Positions 8,990 to 23,409 of a DNA stretch of 23,507 bases are shown in pieces. The stretch covers positions 1 to 23,507 of the forward strand of contig JAEOTB010000041.1 of assembly GCA_016840065.1 (NCBI GenBank), given 5' to 3'. The DNA comes from Candidatus Hermodarchaeota archaeon. Lineage in GTDB: Archaea; Asgardarchaeota; Hermodarchaeia; Hermodarchaeales; Hermodarchaeaceae. Within the stretch, counting starts at the first letter, position 1. Each line of letters starts with the position of its first letter. The position numbers and the translations under genes were made by a program. A model generated the notes under the pieces. It saw only the letters and a list, made by a program, of their open reading frames with translations. It was not told the DNA's origin and made no database searches.

Positions 8990-9096
8990 CTCCTAGGGGT
9001 GGCGAAAAACTCTTTAGTGAAAAAGACAAGCGATTGGCGTCACACACAAGAACCAATTCTCAAGTTCCTAGAGAGCGGATGAAGGACGTTCAAGAA

Positions 9097-11808
9097 ATGA
9101 CAGAAAAATGGGTATATCTATTCAGTGAAGGCAACAGGGATATGCGCAACCTCCTAGGAGGAAAAGGCGCAAACCTAGCCGAAATGACCAACGCAGGAAT
9201 CCCAGTCCCACCTGGATTCACTATAACAACGGAAGCCTGTAATGCCTACTTCAAGGGTGGAAAACAATTCCCCAAAGGTATGTGGGAGCAAGTATTGGGT
9301 GCCCTAAAGGCAATAGAAAAACAAACAGACAAACGCCTAGGAGATCCCTCCAACCCGCTGCTCGTATCCTGCCGCTCAGGAGCAAGAGTAAGCATGCCAG
9401 GGATGATGGACACCGTACTCAATATTGGTCTGAATCCGACTGTTTTGGAGGGCTTTGCGAAGCTAACTGGAAACGAGCGTACTGCTTGGGATGCCTATCG
9501 TCGTTTGATTCAGATGTTTGGTAATATTGTAAAGGGGATGGATCGCCACGCTTTCGAGGCTATTCTTGATAAGTACAAGGAAAAGACTGGGGGCGGCAAG
9601 GACACGGACTTGACTGTAGATATGTTGAAGGACTTGGTTAGGGATTTCAAGGCTTTGTACGAAAAGGAACTTGGCGAGACGTTTCCCGATGAGCCGCATG
9701 ATCAGATTAAGCAGGCAATCGCCGCTGTCTTTGAGTCATGGTTCGGAGCTCCTGCTACAGCTTATCGTAATGCCGAAGGACTTCCCCACGATTGGGGCAC
9801 GGCAGTGAATGTGCAAACCATGGTCTTTGGAAACATGGGTGAGGGGAGTGGGACCGGTGTTGCATTCACTCGGAATCCAGCTAACGGTGAAAGAGTAGTG
9901 TGGGGTGAGTATCTGCTTAACGCTCAAGGAGAAGATGTAGTTGCTGGTATCCGAACTCCGCAACCCATCTCGAGATTGGCAGATGATATGCCTGAAATAT
10001 ATAAGGAATTCCTTGAGATATGCGAACGCCTTGAGCTGCATTACCGCGATACACAAGATGTTGAATTTACTATTGAGCGTGGTAAGCTTTGGATGCTCCA
10101 AACCCGAACTGGAAAACGTACTGCTTTTGCCGCTGTGAAGATAGCGGTTGATATGGTCAGGGAGAAGCTTATCAAGAAGAATGAAGCGCTACTTCGCGTG
10201 AATCCAAATCAGATTAACCAGTTTCTTCACCCTCGCTTTGACCCTGTAGCTGTTCAGAAAGCCAAAGCCGAGGGAAGACTACTAGCTCAGGGACTCAATG
10301 CTTCGCCAGGTGCCGCCACTGGAATTGCCATCTTTGATGCTGACAGAGCCGAAGAGAGAGGAGAATCCGGGGAAGCAATAATCTTGGTACGACCTGAAAC
10401 CAATCCAGAAGATGTCCACGGGATGGTTCTAGCCCAAGGGATCCTAACCCAGAAAGGAGGAATGACCTCACATGCCGCTGTGGTAGCAAGAGGCTGGGGG
10501 AAGCCCTGTATAGCAGGCTGTGAAGAGATTGATATTGACCTCGATTCCCGTCAGCTCACAGTGAATGGTCAAGTGATTAAGGAAGGCGATCAAATCTCAC
10601 TTAATGGTACAACTGGTGAAATGTTCGCTGGTGAGATCGCTACTGTTGAGGCTAGCTTTGAGAAAGAACACGATTTAGTAACATTACTTGGCTGGGCAGA
10701 TGAAATCAGACAACTGGGTGTATGGACAAACTCGGACACTCCAGATGACGCAGCACGTGCTCGCGCCTTCGGTGCGGAAGGAATTGGTCTTTGTCGAACG
10801 GAGCACATGTTCTTTGGAGAAGAACGGCGCCCAATTGTTGTAAAAATGATAATGTCTGATAACCCAGACGAGCGTATAGAGCTGCTGAATCAATTGCTGC
10901 CATTTCAACGCGAAGATTTTGAGGAAATTTTCCGGAAGATGGACGGTCTTCCAGTTATTATCCGACTCATTGATCCTCCGATGCATGAATTCTTACCTCC
11001 TCTTGAGGAACTACTGGTAACAATTAACCAGCTGGAACTTGAACTGAAAAACAAACCATCATCTACTAAGGCAAAGGAGTTGAAGAGTGCTCTAGAGGAA
11101 CAAAAACGTGTACTCAAGGTAGTACGCAGTATGTGGGAGGTCAACCCCATGATGGGTCTGCGTGGGTGCCGCGCTGGCATCATGTACCAAGGCCTAACAG
11201 AGATGCAGACCCGAGCTATCTTCGAAGCAGCCTGCAACGTCACCAAAGAAGGCATCGAAACACACCCAGAAATAATGATACCCCTGATTAGCCACGTCAA
11301 TGAACTTAAACTGGAAAGATCCAAACTGGAAAAAGTCGCGAAAGAAGTAATGGCTGAAAGTGGTGAAGAAGTAGATTACAAATTTGGAACTATGATTGAA
11401 ATCCCTAGAGCAGCTATTACCGCAGAAAAAGTCGCCAAATATGCTGACTTCTTTTCCTTTGGTACAAACGACTTGACGCAAATGACATATGGTGTCAGCC
11501 GTGATGATGCTGAAGGGAAGTTCCTACGACAATACGTGGGTTTAGGCATTCTAGAAGCAAATCCCTTTGAAGTCCTAGACAGAGAGGGAGTGGGTGTGCT
11601 AATGCGGATGGCTGTTGAAAAGGGTAGAAGCGCAAAGCCAGATTTGGAGATTGGCGGATGTGGTGAGCACTTTGGAGAACCTAACTCGATAGAGTTCTCA
11701 CACATAATTGGTTTGAACTATGTCAGTTGCTCTCCTTTTCGTGTTCCTATCGCACGTCTCGCAGCAGCTCAGGCTGCTCTAAGGCATAAGTATGGGCGCA
11801 AAAGCTAG
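9097..11808 (+). CDS. ppdK: Pyruvate, phosphate dikinase
   Basis: LLGGKGANLAEM, VPPGFTITTEAC, PLLVSCRSGA, MPGMMDT, GGMTSHAAVVARG (phospho-His), GIGLCRTEHMF, FSFGTNDLTQ and CGEH. The start is probably ATG 9097 (MTEKWVYLF); 9079 is an alternative. Confidence 0.97.
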   Translation: MTEKWVYLFSEGNRDMRNLLGGKGANLAEMTNAGIPVPPGFTITTEACNAYFKGGKQFPKGMWEQVLGALKAIEKQTDKRLGDPSNPLLVSCRSGARVSMPGMMDTVLNIGLNPTVLEGFAKLTGNERTAWDAYRRLIQMFGNIVKGMDRHAFEAILDKYKEKTGGGKDTDLTVDMLKDLVRDFKALYEKELGETFPDEPHDQIKQAIAAVFESWFGAPATAYRNAEGLPHDWGTAVNVQTMVFGNMGEGSGTGVAFTRNPANGERVVWGEYLLNAQGEDVVAGIRTPQPISRLADDMPEIYKEFLEICERLELHYRDTQDVEFTIERGKLWMLQTRTGKRTAFAAVKIAVDMVREKLIKKNEALLRVNPNQINQFLHPRFDPVAVQKAKAEGRLLAQGLNASPGAATGIAIFDADRAEERGESGEAIILVRPETNPEDVHGMVLAQGILTQKGGMTSHAAVVARGWGKPCIAGCEEIDIDLDSRQLTVNGQVIKEGDQISLNGTTGEMFAGEIATVEASFEKEHDLVTLLGWADEIRQLGVWTNSDTPDDAARARAFGAEGIGLCRTEHMFFGEERRPIVVKMIMSDNPDERIELLNQLLPFQREDFEEIFRKMDGLPVIIRLIDPPMHEFLPPLEELLVTINQLELELKNKPSSTKAKELKSALEEQKRVLKVVRSMWEVNPMMGLRGCRAGIMYQGLTEMQTRAIFEAACNVTKEGIETHPEIMIPLISHVNELKLERSKLEKVAKEVMAESGEEVDYKFGTMIEIPRAAITAEKVAKYADFFSFGTNDLTQMTYGVSRDDAEGKFLRQYVGLGILEANPFEVLDREGVGVLMRMAVEKGRSAKPDLEIGGCGEHFGEPNSIEFSHIIGLNYVSCSPFRVPIARLAAAQAALRHKYGRKS

Positions 11809-11850: not shown

Positions 11851-12513
11851 TTATCTTAACTGAAAGAGATAGAGAGTTTCAAGGAAACCAAGGAGCCTCC
11901 CCGTTGCTAGAATTTCTAGCTGGAAGTTCGATTGCTCAATCATATGTAGTATCTCTTGAAGTGGAGCAACCGAACTAAAGAGGATTTGAATCCTCCCCTT
12001 CTTTGTTAGATTTCGTGGTGCCTCAACAAGGAACCGATAAATCAGTTTGCATTGGGGTCCAGCATACCAGGCTTGTGCTAATAGGTCTCTAGGTTTTCCT
12101 GTTAGATATGGTGGATTGAAAAGAATTAGATCAAATCGCTGCCTTTGTACTGGTTCGAAAAGGTTTCCTTGTTTTACGTCTACAACGCTTTCAAGGCGGT
12201 TTAGGCGTATTGTTTCTTTAGCGCATTTTACTGAATATGGGTTTATGTCTGTGGCAACAACTCGCTTAGCGTAGCGTGCAGCAAAGGCGGCTATGGCACC
12301 AGTTCCTGTCCCTAATTCTAGAACCCTTGAGCCTCGGGGAATAATCATATGACGTATGAAAAAACGTGTAGTTCCGCTAACCAGTGGGTTGAATACGTGG
12401 GGGCAAATCTGAATTCTCACACCTTCTAGAACAGACGTTCGAGGTCGAAGTCTCCGATGAAGAAGCTCCAATACCCATGGAATGATTCTAGTATGTGGTT
12501 TTGTGGTAGCCAT
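11851..12513 (-). CDS. HemK/PrmC/MTQ2-like SAM-dependent methyltransferase
   Basis: VLELGTGTGAIA, ATDINP, GNLFEP and ILFNPPYL. Confidence 0.88.
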   Translation of the reverse strand: MATTKPHTRIIPWVLELLHRRLRPRTSVLEGVRIQICPHVFNPLVSGTTRFFIRHMIIPRGSRVLELGTGTGAIAAFAARYAKRVVATDINPYSVKCAKETIRLNRLESVVDVKQGNLFEPVQRQRFDLILFNPPYLTGKPRDLLAQAWYAGPQCKLIYRFLVEAPRNLTKKGRIQILFSSVAPLQEILHMIEQSNFQLEILATGRLLGFLETLYLFQLR

Positions 12514-12621: not shown

Positions 12622-13119
12622 ATGAGTCTATTAGAAGGATTTGACTTCCTTTCTGCTGAAAAAGACATGGAAAAGAAGATTGAGGAACTTGCGAATGTTG
12701 TGGAACGTGTCGCTACAATCTTCCTGAATGGTGTTGGTTCTCTGGAAGAGCAGATTAAGGGACTAAGCCAACAGCTGAGTGTGTTAGGTAGCCGCATTAG
12801 CAAGGCAGAGACTCAGGTAGAAACTGTTCTCAGAATGGGTGTCTCCCGTCCCGCTGCTAAGGGTCAAACAAGCCCTACTGCTCCTGGCCCAGCTAGTCCT
12901 AGTGGACCGATGCCTACGACTGATGCAGCAAGCCCCGATCATACCACTCCCCCCGGTCCTCGTACAGCTCCAAAGCTCACTGAGGTCGAACAAAGAACTC
13001 CCACTTCGCCAATGGGTGGACAAGTGAGTGTTCAAGCCGAGATGCGTGGCGAACTCAAGAGTTTCCTGGCTCGTCGCCGGGCAGCTCTTGAAGCCCGTAT
13101 GAAAGAAGAAGGTGGCTAG
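12622..13119 (+). CDS. Hypothetical protein: N-terminal coiled coil, Pro/Thr/Ser-rich linker, C-terminal amphipathic basic helix (WASH/VASP-like layout)
   Basis: 165-aa ORF filling the gap between two minus-strand genes. Heptad pattern at about aa 15-70, Pro-rich aa 77-131, and C-terminal EMRGELKSFLARRRAALE. Confidence 0.8.
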   Translation: MSLLEGFDFLSAEKDMEKKIEELANVVERVATIFLNGVGSLEEQIKGLSQQLSVLGSRISKAETQVETVLRMGVSRPAAKGQTSPTAPGPASPSGPMPTTDAASPDHTTPPGPRTAPKLTEVEQRTPTSPMGGQVSVQAEMRGELKSFLARRRAALEARMKEEGG

Positions 13120-13147: not shown

Positions 13148-13771
13148 CTAGGGTCTGGAGAAATCATTCAGGCGGCGCTGCTTTTCCCTGATTGGCGTTG
13201 CCTGTCCAGTTTTTTCGTCAAGAAGTGATTTCAGTTTTAGCATGTCTTTCTCCATTGTTGGTATCAGCCTTCTGGTATACAATCCTGCAGCAGGGTGGTA
13301 GATTACATAGTATGTCTGTCCCTCTCGCTCATATTCTCTTCCATGCATGGCTGACATACTCGCACTTGTGTCGAGGATTGTTTCTGCTGGCACTCGACCT
13401 GCAAGACATACAATTTTAGGTTTTATCAGTAACAGCTGACGTTGCAGGAATGGAGAACATATTTCCCTTTCTCTAGGTGCTGGTGGTCGGTTTTCTGGTG
13501 GGCGACACTTGACAGTATTTGTGATAAAAACAGTCGATCGATTGATGCCTGCTCCAGCCAGCAACTCTGTTAGTAACTTGCCAGCTGCACCTACAAAAGG
13601 ACGTCCCTGGAGGTCCTCATTCCGTCCCGGCGCTTCTCCCAAGATGACTAGGTTTGCCTTCTGAGGACCTTCACCTGGTACAGCTTGAGTTCGGGTTTCT
13701 GAAAGAGGACACTGCTGGCATTCCAGTATTTCTTGACGTAGTATGTTCCAAGCATCTTCGTTTGAACACAT
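13148..13771 (-). CDS. udg: Family-4 uracil-DNA glycosylase (4Fe-4S) with C-terminal PIP-like motif
   Basis: CQQCPL, GEAPG, GRPFVG, TNTVKCRPPENR, C.PFL and YHPAA. C-terminal QRRLNDFS. Confidence 0.95.
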   Translation of the reverse strand: MCSNEDAWNILRQEILECQQCPLSETRTQAVPGEGPQKANLVILGEAPGRNEDLQGRPFVGAAGKLLTELLAGAGINRSTVFITNTVKCRPPENRPPAPREREICSPFLQRQLLLIKPKIVCLAGRVPAETILDTSASMSAMHGREYEREGQTYYVIYHPAAGLYTRRLIPTMEKDMLKLKSLLDEKTGQATPIREKQRRLNDFSRP

Positions 13772-14858: not shown

Positions 14859-15299
14859 ATGTCTATGGCGTTGTTCATGACGGACCAACAACCTGAAAAA
14901 ACAATTGTCAAGTTGCGCGAGTGGTCACGAGAAATAAACCGAGGTTTCATAGAATTCTGGGTACTTTCGCTACTAAGGAGAGAAAGCCTCTACGGCGCTC
15001 GCATATCGAATCTACTAGACGATTTAACCGAAGGTCGTATACAACTCGAACCCGGCACAATCTACCCACTTCTTCGTCGACTCGCTGAAAGTGGATGGAT
15101 AGTCAGTGACATTCGCGTAAGAAGCGTGGGTCGCGGACCAATGCGCCGCTACTACCGGCTAACCAAAGAAGGGAAGCAGTTACATAGTAGAATGGTAGAG
15201 CATTATTTAGGGAGTTTCGAGGAGCTATTGAAAATGATGGTGATTGACTTCAGGTCCGTTCGCGAACGCTTAATTCATTTAATGAAGGAGATAGAATAA
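14859..15299 (+). CDS. PadR-family transcriptional regulator
   Basis: RGFIEFWVLSLL, LYG, PGTIYPLLRRL...GWI and RRYYRLTKEG. The start could be ATG 14877. Confidence 0.92.
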   Translation: MSMALFMTDQQPEKTIVKLREWSREINRGFIEFWVLSLLRRESLYGARISNLLDDLTEGRIQLEPGTIYPLLRRLAESGWIVSDIRVRSVGRGPMRRYYRLTKEGKQLHSRMVEHYLGSFEELLKMMVIDFRSVRERLIHLMKEIE

Positions 15300-17552
15300 A
15301 TGACAAAACCAATTCGACTAAGAGTAGTTTCGCTACCCAGCGATGAAGCAGGTCGCGGCATAGTCCGAATCGATCCAAAAGCTATGGAACACTTAGGTGT
15401 AACATCTGGTGATATTATTGAGGTACGCGGAAAGAAAACTACAGGAGCAAGAGTATGGCGTGGACAGTCCATCCAATCGGGTAGTGGAAAAATATTCATG
15501 GATGGATTGGTGCGAAGTAATGCAGGAGCAGGAATCGGAGATTTCGTCGATATCAGGAGAATAAATCCAGCTCCCGCTAAGCGAGTGGTACTTTCACCCG
15601 CTCAACGAGGCGTTCGAATCGTAGCTGATGGTAGGGCAGTTCGGCCTAGCTTAAACCAACGGCCAGTCATTGTGGGTGACATCATCAGTACAGCAAGCGC
15701 AGGACCATACCGAAGTAGTGGTTTCTCCCTCTTTGAGGCAGTAATACGCCAAGCTGGGGCACCGTTCGCTCTTGGTGAAATAAAATTCATTGTGACCCAA
15801 ACTTCACCAAAGGGAATCGTGAAAATATCTGAGGAGACAATCATCGAAATTAATCCCGAGGCAGTAGAAGAAGCCCAAAAAGCTCCCCTTGTAACCTATG
15901 AGGATATTGGAGGATTAGGTGAAGCAGTAGATAGGGTACGTGAGATGATAGAACTTCCACTGAAACACCCCGAGCTTTTCGACCGTTTAGGCATCGATCC
16001 ACCAAAGGGAGTTCTCCTTTACGGTCCTCCTGGAACAGGAAAAACCCTCCTCGCTCGTGCTGTTGCCAATGAATCAGACGCCCATTTCATAACGATAAAC
16101 GGTCCAGAAATAATGAGTAAATTCTATGGAGAATCCGAGAAGCGGCTTCGTGAGATATTCCAAAAAGCTGAACAACAAGCACCTAGCATAGTGTTCATAG
16201 ATGAAATTGACAGCATAGCACCAAAACGAGAAGACGTACAAGGAGAAGTAGAACGGCGCGTGGTCGCTCAGCTCCTTGCCTTAATGGATGGACTCCAAGG
16301 TCGAGGAAAGGTCATTGTCATCGCAGCGACGAACCGTCCAGAAGCCCTCGACCCCGCGCTGCGGCGTCCCGGACGCTTTGACAGAGAAATAGAGCTTCCA
16401 GTCCCTAATAGAAGTGGCCGCAAGGAAATTCTCCTTATTCACACACGTGGTATGCCTTTAACTAAAGATGTTGATCTTGACAAACTGGCTGACTCAACAC
16501 ATGGACACGTGGGTGCTGATCTCGCAGCCATAGCACGCGAAGCTGCCATGAACACTCTACGCAGGATTCTACCAAAGATAAAACTAGATGAGGATGTACC
16601 CCTTCCCCCTGCTCTATTGGAAGACCTCGAAGTCACCTCCGAAGACTTTGAAGAAGCCCTTCGAAGAGCTGAACCCTCTGCCATGCGTGAGGTATACTTG
16701 GAAATCCCCAAGGTATCCTGGGCTGATGTTGGAGGGCTCGAAGATGTAAAAGGCGAGCTTCGCGAAGCAGTGGAGTGGCCCCTGAAATACCCTGAGAAAT
16801 TCGATAAAGTAGGTGTCAGACCTCCAAAGGGGATACTTCTCATAGGACCACCAGGATGTGGTAAAACACTACTAGCTAAGGCTACGGCTACAGAAAGTGA
16901 GGCAAACTTCATCGCTATCCGTGGACCTGAAATCTTTAGTAAATGGGTTGGCGAGTCTGAGAAAGCAATTCGTAAGATTTTCCGTAAAGCACGGCAAGTG
17001 GCACCAAGCATAGTTTTCTTTGATGAATTAGATAGCCTTGCGCCTAAGCGTGGGCTATGGCAGGGCAGTCACGTTTACGAGTCTACTGTAAACCAATTAC
17101 TCGCGGAATTAGATGGAATGGAAGAGCTTCGCAACGTCGTTGTCATTGGTGCTACGAACAGACCCGAAATCATCGACCAAGCGCTGCTTCGACCTGGTCG
17201 ATTTGACATAATCATTCTGGTACCTCCACCGGATAAGCAGGCCCGTCTAGAGGTTCTCCGAGTTCACACCCGTGACATGCCTTTAGACAAGGATGTCGAC
17301 TTGGACAAAATCGCTAAAGAGACTGAAGAATACTCTGGTGCTGACCTTGCAAACCTCGTTCGCGAAGCAGGTATGGCAGCAATTCGCACCGAGAAAACCT
17401 TGACCAAGGTAAGAGCAAAGCACTTTGAAGCAGCTCTTGGAAAAATCCGTCCAAGCATCACATCTGAAATGATGAAGGCATATCAAGAAATGATCTCGAA
17501 GATGTCCACCCAACGAGATGCCATCGAAACCACTCCAAGCCCTTATACGTAG
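15300..17552 (+). CDS. cdc48: Cdc48/p97/VAT AAA+ ATPase
   Basis: N-domain ([14 protein letters not shown]). D1 has [22 protein letters not shown] and D2 has [19 protein letters not shown]. The C-terminal PYT has a penultimate Tyr (HbYX-like). Confidence 0.97.
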
Positions 17553-20083: not shown

Positions 20084-21649
20084 ATGAGCTTCGTAGAAGC
20101 GGCTGCGAAGATCGCCTATGAGAGATTGTGTAAACCCTTTTTGAAGAGGCTAGAGGACCCCCCAGCCGCTCAAGAGGAGTGCCTGCTGAAAATCCTGAAA
20201 CGATGCAAAGGAACGGTTTTCGGCAAGCGTCACGGCTTTGCTGACATTAAAACAATCGAGGAATACCAGCGCAGGGTGCCAGTCAGCACCTATGAAGACA
20301 TGGAGCCCTACATTGCCCGATGTATGAAGGGAGAGCAAAATATCCTGTTCCCTGACAGAATTATGTATTTCGTACAATCTTCCGGAACCACAGCGGACAG
20401 AAAGTATTATCCTCTAGGCGAATATCGTGCAAGGCAGCACGGGAGTGAAATAATCAGGAGGAGACTCTTCTACACAGTACATGGAAATTATTATGATTTA
20501 GGAGACGGTGCAACCGTTACTCTACACGAGCCACCATTATCAGGAGATAAGTGCGGCATCTATGATGTGATAAATGGAACACATGTCGCAACAATGGAAC
20601 TGCAGACACAGCGCTTTGGAGGCTCTAGAGCAGTAGAAGATAGACTAACCATCCCGCCCCCTGAAGTCATTGCACTACGCGATTGGGAAGAGAAAACCTA
20701 TCTCGCCGCGCGCCATGCGGTCGCAGCCGATGTCCGGAGAATTATCGGGGTGTCCTCCCTCATGTCCTCATTTCTCAGAAAAATCAGCCTCCACTTCTAT
20801 GATAGGCTAATGGCAGACCCAGAACTGGATAATAGGACCAAGAACAGGCTCCAGCGAGTATCCAAGAACGGAGTCATCAATCTCAGTGAACTGTGGCCCA
20901 ACTTCACCATCTTTTGTGGCGGCGGGGTATCCATCACCCCTTACAGACGAATCATCCGCAACCTCTTGGGAGATATCGAAATCTGGAACATATACGGGGC
21001 AATCGAAGCAACAATGGGGGACCAACTCTACCCTAACGGAGGAATCGTACCAGCAATTGACCTAACCTTCCTCGAATTCCAACCAGAAGGCAAAGATACC
21101 GAGCCTGTACCACTCAGCGACGTCAAAATCAACACACCCTACCGAGTCCTAGTCACAAACCACGCCGGCTTCTACCGCTACGAACTCGGCGACATAGTCA
21201 CTCTTGCCGCCCTGGACCCCCCCGAATACGGAGAAATCACACGACTAAAAACACTAGTCAACATCGTCGGCGAACGAACACGAGAGGAAATGCTCCTCCG
21301 TGCCCTCGACCACGCCTGCGAGAAACAGCACACCACCTACACCGAATTCGCCCTACTACCAGAGGTCACCACAACGATCACCCGCTACCAACTATTCATC
21401 GAATTCACCCAAATCCCCACCGACCTCGAAAAACTCGCCAACGACATCGACACCCACCTAAGAAGCCTCGGCATCTACTACGACTACTTCCGACAAAACG
21501 GCACCCTCTCACCCCCCCACATAGTACCCGTCAAACCAGGAGGCTTCCAAACCCTACTACAAAAACTCGGAAAAGACCCCCTACACAGCAAAGTCCCCCG
21601 CATCCTAACCCCCCAAACCAGCCAACTAATCCCACAATCCACTGCCTAA
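20084..21649 (+). CDS. GH3-family acyl-acid amido synthetase-like adenylating enzyme
   Basis: QEECLLKIL, TVFG, VPVSTYED, SSGTT, YGAIEA, FLEF, GFYRYELGD and KVPR. Confidence 0.9.
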   Translation: MSFVEAAAKIAYERLCKPFLKRLEDPPAAQEECLLKILKRCKGTVFGKRHGFADIKTIEEYQRRVPVSTYEDMEPYIARCMKGEQNILFPDRIMYFVQSSGTTADRKYYPLGEYRARQHGSEIIRRRLFYTVHGNYYDLGDGATVTLHEPPLSGDKCGIYDVINGTHVATMELQTQRFGGSRAVEDRLTIPPPEVIALRDWEEKTYLAARHAVAADVRRIIGVSSLMSSFLRKISLHFYDRLMADPELDNRTKNRLQRVSKNGVINLSELWPNFTIFCGGGVSITPYRRIIRNLLGDIEIWNIYGAIEATMGDQLYPNGGIVPAIDLTFLEFQPEGKDTEPVPLSDVKINTPYRVLVTNHAGFYRYELGDIVTLAALDPPEYGEITRLKTLVNIVGERTREEMLLRALDHACEKQHTTYTEFALLPEVTTTITRYQLFIEFTQIPTDLEKLANDIDTHLRSLGIYYDYFRQNGTLSPPHIVPVKPGGFQTLLQKLGKDPLHSKVPRILTPQTSQLIPQSTA

Positions 21650-21654
21650 CAAAC

Positions 21655-21674
21655 GAGTGAGAAACAACTCACCC
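21655..21674 (-). terminator. Hairpin with T-rich tail ending minus-strand transcription
   Basis: The minus strand reads GGGTGAG-ttgttt-CTCACTC followed by GTTTGTT, between convergent genes. Confidence 0.35.
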
Positions 21675-21852
21675 AAACAGGTCAAGACAACCAGCTAACG
21701 ACGCCACGCCTTCTCAGCAAACCGCCGCTCACGACTCTCCGCACTAAACTTCTCCCAACTAATCTCTTCACGACGACCACGAGCATCAGTAAGGATAGCC
21801 CTATCAGTCCACGAAAAACAGGAGAATAGAAGAATCCAGCCAATTTAATTCG

Positions 21853-23409
21853 TTACGAATGCTCACTTTCCGTGTCTTCACGTATCCTCTCTAAGGCTCT
21901 TGTTGCTGCCCGTCGAACCGACTCGTTTTCATCCTTTGACGCTATAACTATTCGCGCAATTACCTGTTCATCTCGAGTTCTACATAGGGCTGCTTCAACA
22001 AAAGAACCGAACTCTTCGTCTTCACGTACTAGGTCAAAAAGCGCCTCTACTAGTTCAACACTAATAGTGAAGGTCTTGCCTACATATTCGATAATCTCAA
22101 AGCTGGCAGGAGTATCACGTTCTCTCATCCCCAGCTCGAATGCTACTAGTTCACGGATGCGAAGATTTGAACCTGCTAAGCAACGAATTAGATGGGGCAG
22201 CAGCCTCTCAAACCCAATATCCACAGGAAAATACTCATCAAGGGGTTTCTCTTCAGAAAGCGTAATCTTAACTAGAAACCCGATCAGACGCTTCTCCAGA
22301 TTTTTGTCTTTGATTTCCCGTTTCTTGACAATCAAGGAGAGGATGTTTATTATTGCTGACCGACGACTTGGACTCTCCCAGGTTAGGCTGCTTCCTTCAG
22401 CAACATCTAGGAGCGCTTCTGCTGCAGGTTCACCGATAGACACCAGTCCATCTATTATTATATTCTCAGCCATTTGTGAACTGTATTCAACGGCTTCATA
22501 TACCCGGTCCAGCACTTCGATGAGAGTGTCAATCGCCGGTACGCCAATGCTGACCAGCGCGCGTACCGCCTCGTCTCGAGTTTGGCGACCGAGACGGGCA
22601 TCCTGAGGTTCAAAACGTCTATGCGACACTACAAGGGGCGTATCCACCGCCCTCGCCAAAGCATCGATGGCAGCTTCCCCTAAAAGCGAGGCTTCTTCCC
22701 ACTTATGCGCTGCGACATACCACAACGCGCGCTCCGCATCTCCTTTTGGCTTCCACCCCAACCGATGCAGCGCTGTAGCCGCTTTCAATCGAGTGCCTTC
22801 ATCCCGGCTTTGCAAGGAGGGTCTAATCAGTTCCACAGCCCGTTTATCACCGATTAATCCCATCACTTCTATCAAGACGGTTTTTAGAACCCGACTCTCC
22901 GTATTCTTGAAGGCTTCGAGAAGTAAATCAACATCATCCCCACGCGCGGCACTCAAAATATCCACCACAAAAGCAACACGTGTCCCCTCCATCACTGCCC
23001 TGAGGGTAGCTCTCACAGCAGGAGACCCAAACGACTTGAACACCTCCACCGCCCAACGCCGCTCCTCCTCCCCTGAAAACTCAGGGTCCTCCTCCCCATA
23101 CGGGTACCCCCGTACACTCGGCGCCTCCCAAGAGATCAACACTAAAAACGAATCCACCGCAGCGTCCACGCCCCCCTCAATCATCCCCAACGCATCCACA
23201 ACACTATCCAGAACACCCCCAGACCGGCCAATCTCCTTCAACGCTTCAACAAGCACCTCGACCGCCTGACCTGTACCCAACTCCCCCAACGCCCGAGCCG
23301 CCGCCCCACGCACCACCAAGTCATCCCGGAAACACAGCGCCCGACCCAAACCCCTGTAATCCTTCGACGCCTTCAACGCACCCACATCAGGAGACTCCCG
23401 AGAACTCAT
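21853..23409 (-). CDS. HEAT-repeat (PBS lyase-like) protein
   Basis: Repeated VRxxAAxALGxxG...AVxxLxxAL units (VRGAAARALGELG, TRLKAATALHRLG, TRDEAVRALVSIG, VRRAATRAL). Confidence 0.88.
   Translation of the reverse strand: MSSRESPDVGALKASKDYRGLGRALCFRDDLVVRGAAARALGELGTGQAVEVLVEALKEIGRSGGVLDSVVDALGMIEGGVDAAVDSFLVLISWEAPSVRGYPYGEEDPEFSGEEERRWAVEVFKSFGSPAVRATLRAVMEGTRVAFVVDILSAARGDDVDLLLEAFKNTESRVLKTVLIEVMGLIGDKRAVELIRPSLQSRDEGTRLKAATALHRLGWKPKGDAERALWYVAAHKWEEASLLGEAAIDALARAVDTPLVVSHRRFEPQDARLGRQTRDEAVRALVSIGVPAIDTLIEVLDRVYEAVEYSSQMAENIIIDGLVSIGEPAAEALLDVAEGSSLTWESPSRRSAIINILSLIVKKREIKDKNLEKRLIGFLVKITLSEEKPLDEYFPVDIGFERLLPHLIRCLAGSNLRIRELVAFELGMRERDTPASFEIIEYVGKTFTISVELVEALFDLVREDEEFGSFVEAALCRTRDEQVIARIVIASKDENESVRRAATRALERIREDTESEHS

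Follow-up and report, generated by a model that had tools for sequence, protein, structure and literature searches.

An open reading frame (ORF) at positions 12622..13119 of the forward strand of a Candidatus Hermodarchaeota archaeon contig (JAEOTB010000041.1, assembly GCA_016840065.1) encodes a protein that belongs to an undescribed, Asgard-specific protein family, nearly universal in the phylum. The window analyzed here is the whole stretch of 23,507 nucleotides from this contig. The ORF is complete, with 165 codons followed by the stop codon included in the coordinates, and it was recognized by its intact reading frame and by its homologues. Its product is referred to below as P0001, and residue numbering follows P0001. 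A word-indexed protein search and a narrow profile gave the first relatives, to which 19 distant relatives from across the phylum were then added. The word-indexed search returned 66 proteins of 136-165 amino acids with E values down to 1e-65, all unnamed or 'hypothetical', and the named sources were 'Promethearchaeota' metagenome-assembled genomes (MAGs). With the narrow profile, close relatives were detected in 17 of 18 genomes belonging to the window's taxonomic family, and weaker matches were dispersed over the phylum. Alignment A1 contains the close relatives; A2 is the broad family alignment from which the broad profile was derived. Applied to a phylum sample of 301 genomes (90 of them high-quality) representing 70 genera, the broad profile detected the family in 245 genomes, including 79 of the high-quality ones, and in 58 genera, mostly as a single copy. 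A second A2 match in the window's genome (C122) was rejected as an unrelated coiled-coil protein. In a collection of 5.8 billion proteins, all named matches were Asgard (Prometh-, Hod-, Loki- or Thorarchaeota). One clade of the family corresponds to the Jordarchaeales. The restriction to Asgard genomes raised in the first-pass annotation of this ORF thus holds as far as names show, and wide occurrence in actin-less prokaryotes was not encountered.

Typical members have 135-200 residues and consist of a coiled coil of ~60 residues, a disordered and usually Pro-rich linker of 50-110 residues, and a C-terminal helix. The 19 distant relatives all keep this layout, with an acidic-aromatic N-cap, a conserved coiled coil, a variable linker, and the C-terminal helix. 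The same three modules had been read from the P0001 sequence by eye, and they were borne out by an AlphaFold2 monomer built on a 33-sequence alignment, in which a single helix at residues 3-74 (predicted local distance difference test [pLDDT] 88-97) and a second helix at residues 135-164 (pLDDT ~90) are separated by disorder at residues 76-132 (pLDDT <50).

All features of P0001 lie on the plus strand. The N-terminal acidic-aromatic cap (residues 1-16; 12622..12669), of the G-F-D-F-L type, was defined from alignments A1, A2, and A7 (the N-domain alignment) and from its charges, four acidic residues versus one basic residue. It is nearly invariant across the window's taxonomic family, and an acidic-plus-aromatic equivalent is found at the same place in all other clades. 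The start codon of P0001 is right, because its N-terminus agrees with the conserved N-termini of its homologues. The coiled-coil domain (residues 17-74; 12670..12843) was assigned from the AlphaFold2 helix, invariant residues, and profile matches in the PDB, and it holds a conserved buried Asn and a G-x-G break. Alignment A1 revealed an insertion of one heptad (7 residues) at about residues 43-49 (12748..12768), with a placement that is ambiguous within residues 43-57. This insertion is limited to the window's subclade and is a gap in every member outside P0001-P0006. The disordered linker (residues 75-132; 12844..13017), delimited by pLDDT, composition, and variability between clades, is rich in Pro, Thr, Ala, and Ser. 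The C-terminal signature helix (residues 133-156, core 141-153; 13018..13089) was assigned from AlphaFold2, family conservation, and the C-helix profile. A short, mostly acidic tail (residues 157-165; 13090..13116) was identified in A1 and A2; members from the window's taxonomic family and from the lineage designated f4 have this tail, and the Hodarchaeales-like clade lacks it.

Judged by sequence, the family falls outside any known family in the libraries and literature searched. Scans with hmmscan at a reporting limit of E<=10 covered P0001, 27 family members, and members from the f4 and f21 lineages. No Pfam or NCBIfam family model was found for P0001 or its relatives (27+8 relatives scanned), and only sub-threshold coiled-coil noise was obtained. 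Neighbors of the family in the ESM Atlas are archaeal clusters without names. An exhaustive single-sequence HMMER search gave six matches: besides close relatives, these were family-sized proteins at greater distance, a short fragment, and a single protein of low complexity. The known Asgard actin regulators are gelsolins and profilins (PMC9433394, PMC8410842, PMC13716822), and the literature on such regulators covers these two groups only, with no mention of a protein like P0001.

The C-terminal helix is the most constant part of the family. It is present in 149 of 149 collected members, so the conservation on which the first-pass annotation had made its reading depend was found in every homologue. 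Its core consists of an aliphatic residue, any residue, a small residue, Glu-Leu-Lys/Gln, any residue, two hydrophobic residues, any residue, and two basic residues. E144 and L145 are the sole residues invariant family-wide, and a triple Arg is specific to the window's taxonomic family. The linker ends in a conserved T-P-T-S-P-M N-cap. A profile of the C-helix alone matched exactly one gene per genome in five genomes of different taxonomic families (E 1e-7 to 1e-12). The C-helix is therefore a family signature, and its candidacy as a module shared with other proteins was ruled out; its occurrence in a single gene of each genome suggests that it has a partner that is specific and conserved. It forms a short hydrophobic patch followed by a basic cluster, and its overall helical hydrophobic moment is low (0.06-0.39), which fits a protein-docking helix better than a membrane helix.

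The coiled coil probably forms a parallel trimer, as suggested by profiles of the N-domain, which match almost only trimeric coiled coils in the PDB: reovirus sigma1 (E 1e-11), influenza HA2, trimeric adhesin stalks, and designed trimers. The linker that would connect the trimer to the C-helices has 14 Pro in 58 residues in P0001 and no run of three. In the window's clade consecutive Pro residues generally number at most three, and canonical [G/A/L/S]-P5 motifs occur in one of 66 members, versus 52 of 65 members of the Hodarchaeales-like clade.

By analogy of architecture, the family is a new version of the layout that joins an oligomerizer, a Pro-rich linker, and a short actin-binding helix. 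The reading that we tentatively favor, and regard as possible rather than probable, is that it would represent a multivalent actin-binding or assembly factor working in the manner of Ena/VASP or BimA, perhaps coupled to a Rab-like GTPase. The coiled-coil trimer would present three flexible arms, each tipped with a peptide-like docking helix, and the docking partner conserved throughout the phylum would be the actin system. The C-helix would dock on the barbed-face cleft of actin, as WH2, F-actin-binding (FAB), C, or DAD-type helices do. In clades with GP5 motifs the linker could also recruit profilin-actin, and the trimer might then act as a multivalent actin tether, an elongation factor, or a nucleation aid, its activity possibly controlled by a Rab-like GTPase. 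We counted for this reading the distribution of the P0001 family, fusions to a gelsolin domain, linkage to GTPases, the GP5 motifs, additional blocks in f4 members, and the conservation of the C-helix. The Asgard set of actin, profilin, and gelsolin has the same phylum-wide distribution as the P0001 family (PMC13716822).

Ena/VASP proteins provide the closest functional comparison. Shared features are an oligomerizing coiled coil, a linker rich in Pro, and a short helix in which a basic cluster comes after a hydrophobic patch; Hod-like clade members have GP5 motifs of the kind that VASP uses for profilin, and the Leu-Ala-Arg-Arg-Arg piece of FAB is common to the window's clade. However, the family has no EVH1 (WH1) domain, and the N-terminal half of P0001 is a single helix without a Pfam match. 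The family coiled coil is N-terminal and trimer-like, in contrast to the C-terminal tetramer of VASP, and 27 members gave no VASP_tetra match. An LKKV-type G-actin-binding motif is absent in most family clades, and P0001 lacks poly-Pro. Homology to Ena/VASP cannot be claimed because the similarity amounts to only 7 bits over 8 residues.

BimA of Burkholderia is a trimeric outer-membrane autotransporter that mimics Ena/VASP, in which a trimeric coiled coil with Pro-rich and short actin-binding motifs suffices for actin polymerase activity. The family would likewise present a Pro-rich region and short motifs on a trimeric coiled coil, with actin binding known for BimA and predicted for the family. 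BimA is nevertheless a bacterial outer-membrane autotransporter and is not homologous; on the Pro-rich linker, the BimA model of NCBIfam reaches 12-15 bits versus a cut-off of 600. A parallel can also be drawn with nucleation-promoting factors of the WASP family, which share the order of helix, Pro-rich region, amphipathic or basic helix, and short acidic tail. Members of the f4 lineage have, in addition, two WH2-like blocks and an acidic stretch with Phe at its end. In contrast to these factors, the family has no Pfam WH2, WAHD, or WHD match and no Trp in the tail, the WASH-C string scores at chance, and family profiles retrieve no WASP or WAVE chains from the PDB. Asgard gelsolins and profilins have unrelated folds, and the family has no globular domain; the likeness to them is the phylum-wide distribution and the fusion of a gelsolin domain to the family coiled coil in P0135 and L139.

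P0135 (438 amino acids, found on three Joint Genome Institute contigs) consists of a Rab-like GTPase (Pfam Ras, 1e-36), the family coiled coil, a gelsolin-homology domain, and a Zn-ribbon tail. Its coiled coil is 61% identical over 64 residues to members of the Hod clade (E 8e-24). Its gelsolin domain was detected by Pfam (E 0.008) and, in an hhalign comparison with the gelsolin domains of the window's genome, at a probability of 94% (E 9e-8). L139, an independent contig, carries GTPase, gelsolin, and family coiled coil in a different order from P0135, and a frameshift is present. The L139 domain folds as gelsolin in a prediction whose alignment included genuine gelsolin domains; among PDB entries, it best matches the ProGel-actin complex 7C2F from Thorarchaeota (target TM-score 0.90, root-mean-square deviation 1.6 A), with gelsolin, villin, and adseverin next. 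In addition, short divergent family members lie directly upstream of the same type of Rab-like GTPase on three metagenome contigs (L141, L168, and L212). On one of these (L212:3-1598; SDBS01011089.1), two short members are in tandem, and the reading frame of the second continues into a Rab-like GTPase that has a stop codon within it; possible explanations are that the fusion is decaying, that the sequence contains an error, or that read-through occurs.

The f4 lineage offers a further elaboration. In 27 of its 31 genomes, a member of ~300 amino acids carries additional blocks (alignments A5/A6) between the coiled coil and the terminal helix: first a conserved pair of WH2-like blocks, then a basic helix that corresponds to the C-helix of the family, and finally an acidic stretch with Phe at its end. 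By eye, this layout resembles WH2-WH2-C-A. The WH2-like blocks end in L-T-K-V or L-K-K-V, and their spacer is shorter than that of canonical WH2. No ESM Atlas match was obtained for the f4 region. Members of f4 (L229-L254, e.g., L229:1501-2457:-) have 2-4 short repeats of the Ala-Pro-Asn-Leu-Ser type in the segment that joins the coiled coil to the WH2-like blocks. The f21 genomes (4.9-5.9 Mb) encode a paralogue of 215-232 amino acids (L222:1339-1983:-, L225:1441-2136:+) beside the canonical member (L223, L224); the paralogue combines a related coiled coil with a P6-8 run, an acidic block, and a C-helix of variant sequence.

Several results weigh against an actin-binding role. No profile method links any module to WH2, VASP, WASP, WAVE, or WASH. 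When compared with all PDB chains, the C-helix profile retrieved no WASP, WAVE, VASP, or formin chain, and profiles of the whole protein, the N-domain, and the f4 WH2-like block and 'VCA-like' region retrieved no actin-regulator chain, with no WH2 chain matched by the f4 block. Scored against the VASP-FAB string, the C-helix hidden Markov model gave 7.0 bits over 8 residues, a value reached by seven of 2,000 shuffles and by one other of the 2,682 ORFs of the window's genome. Genome-wide Pfam WH2 scans of 10 Asgard genomes never placed a match on a family gene; the best matches were elsewhere in the genomes (E 0.04 or weaker, none above the cut-off), and bacterial control genomes matched too. 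P0001 itself has no poly-Pro run, LKKV-type motif, or acidic-aromatic tail, its tail contains no Trp, and one clade of the family is without any Pro-rich linker. None of 21 gene neighborhoods, taken from many taxonomic families, contained an actin, profilin, or gelsolin gene; the genes present have housekeeping, lipid, glycan, and redox functions. The gelsolin fusions belong to a single small sublineage, gelsolin or profilin linkage was seen in only two of 160 loci of the P0135-type GTPase, and the coiled coil can be reused merely as an oligomerization module. A published Lokiactin co-immunoprecipitation, which names profilins, gelsolins, an ARF GTPase, and BAR proteins (bioRxiv 10.1101/2025.11.30.690169), names no such protein; the in-house tags in its Supplementary Table 2 are given without sequences and are not mappable to this family. 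On the 2/160 count, a general link of the P0135-type GTPase to actin regulators was rejected.

Genes for gelsolin-domain proteins and for a profilin candidate are present in the window's genome. In this genome (84% complete), Pfam Actin found a single locus (G000:C69:26773-27756, L001), scoring 113 bits in a 343-residue frame, and the model detected no canonical high-scoring Lokiactin. Lokiactin may be unassembled, or the 113-bit locus may encode a divergent actin-fold protein. On a contig of the Promethearchaeota MAG DZ1S.179 (L080:3983-6203; JBHLLT010000041.1), a Rab-like GTPase gene is followed by a profilin-like ORF flanked by Zn ribbons, which is 37% identical (E 2e-12) to the profilin candidate of the window's genome. 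The opposite strand encodes a Zn-ribbon protein in which two gelsolin-like domains were seen by eye; Pfam sees Zn ribbons only. A Phe/Tyr/Pro-rich motif with a Zn-ribbon tail after it is common to this profilin-like ORF and the P0135/L139 fusions.

A stronger version of the actin reading holds that the family is the missing Asgard actin assembly factor, a trimer that would place WH2/C-like helices on actin, use GP5 motifs for profilin-actin in Hodarchaeales, be controlled by a Rab-like GTPase, and promote nucleation or elongation, with f4-type members as the archaeal stock of eukaryotic WH2/VCA modules. Taken as a whole, this version is unlikely.

The GTPase linkage admits an explanation that is compatible with actin binding and that we consider somewhat doubtful, namely that the family is a small-GTPase effector or scaffold active in membrane trafficking or remodeling, with the coiled-coil trimer or else the C-helix as the binding site for a Rab/Arf-like GTPase and any actin link being indirect. 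The fusion of the coiled coil to a Rab-like GTPase argues for such a role, as do the members immediately upstream of the same GTPase type on three contigs, with the in-frame run-on in L212, and the presence of a Ras-family GTPase gene within 2-4 genes in seven of the 21 neighborhoods. However, the GTPases neighboring the family in genomes are different paralogues (32-40% identical) and the window's genome has at least 17 Ras-like ORFs, so that proximity by chance is plausible. In addition, 80 genome loci of the P0135-type GTPase had no family gene within 4 kb.

The docking helix might instead bind the protein itself. The C-helix could pack on its own or a neighboring trimer, as in an HR1/HR2-type six-helix bundle, or the N-cap and the basic helix could form a head-to-tail network; the product would be a self-associating scaffold with a Pro-rich spacer and no actin partner. 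The likeness of the N-domain profiles to the central trimers of class-I fusion proteins and adhesin stalks is consistent with this, as are the opposite charges of the two ends (acidic N-cap versus basic C-helix) and conserved surface residues on the coiled coil. Such a scaffold nonetheless seems improbable. The two helices have no confident mutual packing in the AlphaFold2 monomer (predicted TM-score 0.31), the PDB matches reflect generic trimer heptad patterns, and the fusions carry a gelsolin domain in place of the linker and C-helix, which suggests that the C-terminal part is an exchangeable effector.

Gene neighborhoods raise the idea of a membrane or envelope factor, with the basic C-helix binding anionic lipid and the protein working with lipid or glycan biosynthesis or scramblase proteins. 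In three taxonomic families, the family gene directly follows a same-strand gene encoding a VTT/DedA-domain membrane protein, which in the window's family is found at a distance of one gene, and genes for UbiA prenyltransferase, PGM/PMM, PIG-L, and GT4 recur nearby. We find this role distinctly unlikely, since the intergenic gaps of 60-300 nucleotides suggest that the family gene has its own promoter, the neighbors vary between clades, and the low hydrophobic moment together with the invariant Glu-Leu pair is unusual for a lipid-binding amphipathic helix. We judged the recurrent VTT/DedA, UbiA, PGM, CDC48, and Ras-like neighbors to be weak or clade-specific associations.

In the first-pass annotation, P0001 had been proposed as a homologous precursor of WASH/WAVE/VASP regulators on the strength of four short matches, and a true precursor of WASH/WAVE N-terminal helices, CCDC53/BRK1, and WH2/VCA modules now appears very unlikely. 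The gapless alignment of the coiled coil to the WASH N-terminal helix reproduces numerically: P0001 and the WASH string share 7 of 50 identities with a raw BLOSUM62 score of 52, and none of 352,982 windows from the ORFs of the genome exceeds 37. The alignment crosses the heptad insertion found only in the window's subclade, and the family N-domain profiles give the WASH string only 7.0-7.9 bits, matched by 15-18 of the 2,682 genome ORFs and by 4-10 of 2,000 shuffles. We regard it as a similarity that two coiled coils show by chance in a pairwise alignment. No WAHD match was obtained for P0001 at E<=10, nor was WAHD among the 25 families listed for the 27 members.

Likeness to BRK1 and CCDC53, the second match, fared no better, as P0001 has no such Pfam match and other members have matches below threshold only (CCDC53 in 6 of 27 and HSBP1 in 4 of 27, best E 0.02). 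The same hmmscan listed many generic coiled-coil families, including DUF7310, FlaC, P10, and BLOC1_2. CCDC53 was the top match on one f4 member (E 5e-4) and also the best CCDC53 match genome-wide in that genome, but its 21.0 bits are under the curated cut-off of 24.6. CCDC53, BRK1, and HSBP1 share with the family a ~60-residue coiled coil with trimer-type heptads; unlike the family, they have no linker and C-helix. The likeness to CCDC53 and HSBP1 is at best suggestive and could reflect trimer heptad patterns held in common. In the PDB, the N-domain retrieved only generic trimeric coiled coils, an outcome that the first-pass annotation had named as speaking against its reading, and BRK1, HSBP1, WAVE, and WASH chains were absent from the top 60 of 456 matches.

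The remaining two matches concern the C-terminal half. The conservation of the C-helix stands, as described above, whereas its proposed correspondence to eukaryotic motifs is weak for VASP-FAB and at chance for WASH-C, where the C-helix model gave 1.2 bits, a value reached by 103 of 2,000 shuffles. KLTEVEQR, which had been likened to a WH2 tail, is confined to the closest relatives P0001-P0005, and an unrelated Pro-rich stretch takes its place in the sister genus. WH2 (PF02205, curated cut-off 23.1 bits) gave no match at E<=10 in the 27 members or in the f4 and f21 members. The absence from P0001 of a full WH2, an acidic-Trp tail, and a long poly-Pro run, already noted at first pass, agrees with both sequence and Pfam scans. 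The pairwise WASH score, the sub-threshold CCDC53 and HSBP1 matches, and the WH2-like, C-like, and acidic-Phe layout of f4 members argue for a true precursor. Against it, all Pfam matches are under curated cut-offs and stand amid generic coiled-coil families, and WH2 and PDB searches were negative; the motifs are too short for homology to be deduced. With every profile test negative or at noise level, homology to WASH, WAVE, VASP, or WH2 is not supported.

ESCRT-III MIM1 is a helix with Leu and Arg at the extreme C-terminus. A role as adaptor of an AAA+ ATPase, with the C-helix binding either the Vps4 MIT domain in MIM-like fashion or CDC48 in VIM/VBM-like fashion, is highly improbable, for although the C-terminal Leu/Arg helix recalls MIM1 and three taxonomic families (among them the window's, at 15300-17552) have a CDC48-like gene at a distance of 2-4 genes, the MIM1 Arg-Leu pair and final Leu are not conserved across clades (A2, the C-helix alignment A3, and 57 non-redundant C-helices, by inspection), the spacing does not suit VIM or VBM, and no examined neighborhood contained ESCRT genes. 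The MIM1, VIM, and VBM readings of the C-helix were accordingly ruled out on motif spacing.

Filament polymerases such as formins and Ena/VASP have been treated as eukaryotic additions (PMC13716822). Given its phylum-wide occurrence, its minimal Ena/VASP-type polymerase layout, and its natural fusion to a gelsolin domain and a Rab-like GTPase, the P0001 family is a concrete and cheaply testable candidate for the missing assembly-promoting activity in Asgard archaea. With this family, standard actin biochemistry can directly address the long-standing question of whether these archaea had a factor other than profilin and gelsolin that promotes actin assembly. If the family binds actin, it would bear directly on the rise of regulated actin assembly before eukaryogenesis. 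If it does not, it would still be among the most widely conserved uncharacterized Asgard-specific proteins, with a unique C-terminal docking helix that points to a partner conserved across the phylum.

In the window, the gene is preceded by genes for a pyruvate phosphate dikinase (9034-11808, plus strand, identified by eye) and an MTS-type methyltransferase (11851-12513, minus strand). Downstream are genes for a UDG-superfamily glycosylase (13148-13771, minus strand), a PadR regulator (14859-15299, plus strand, identified by Pfam), and a CDC48-like double-AAA ATPase (15300-17552, plus strand, by eye). This neighbor order is conserved in the sister genus (L039, L040). The VTT/DedA-domain gene is immediately upstream of the family gene and on the same strand in L042, L047, and L052 (taxonomic families f18, f2, and f20), and it was also noted for L039/L040; a UbiA prenyltransferase gene is often beside it. 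This adjacency could reflect ancient synteny or a functional link. No tRNA genes were found within the window. Toward its end (21001-23000), the GC skew reaches -0.39 at 21-22 kb after a sharp drop and is still -0.20 at 22-23 kb, a part that overlaps a 518-residue ORF on the minus strand (21853-23409).

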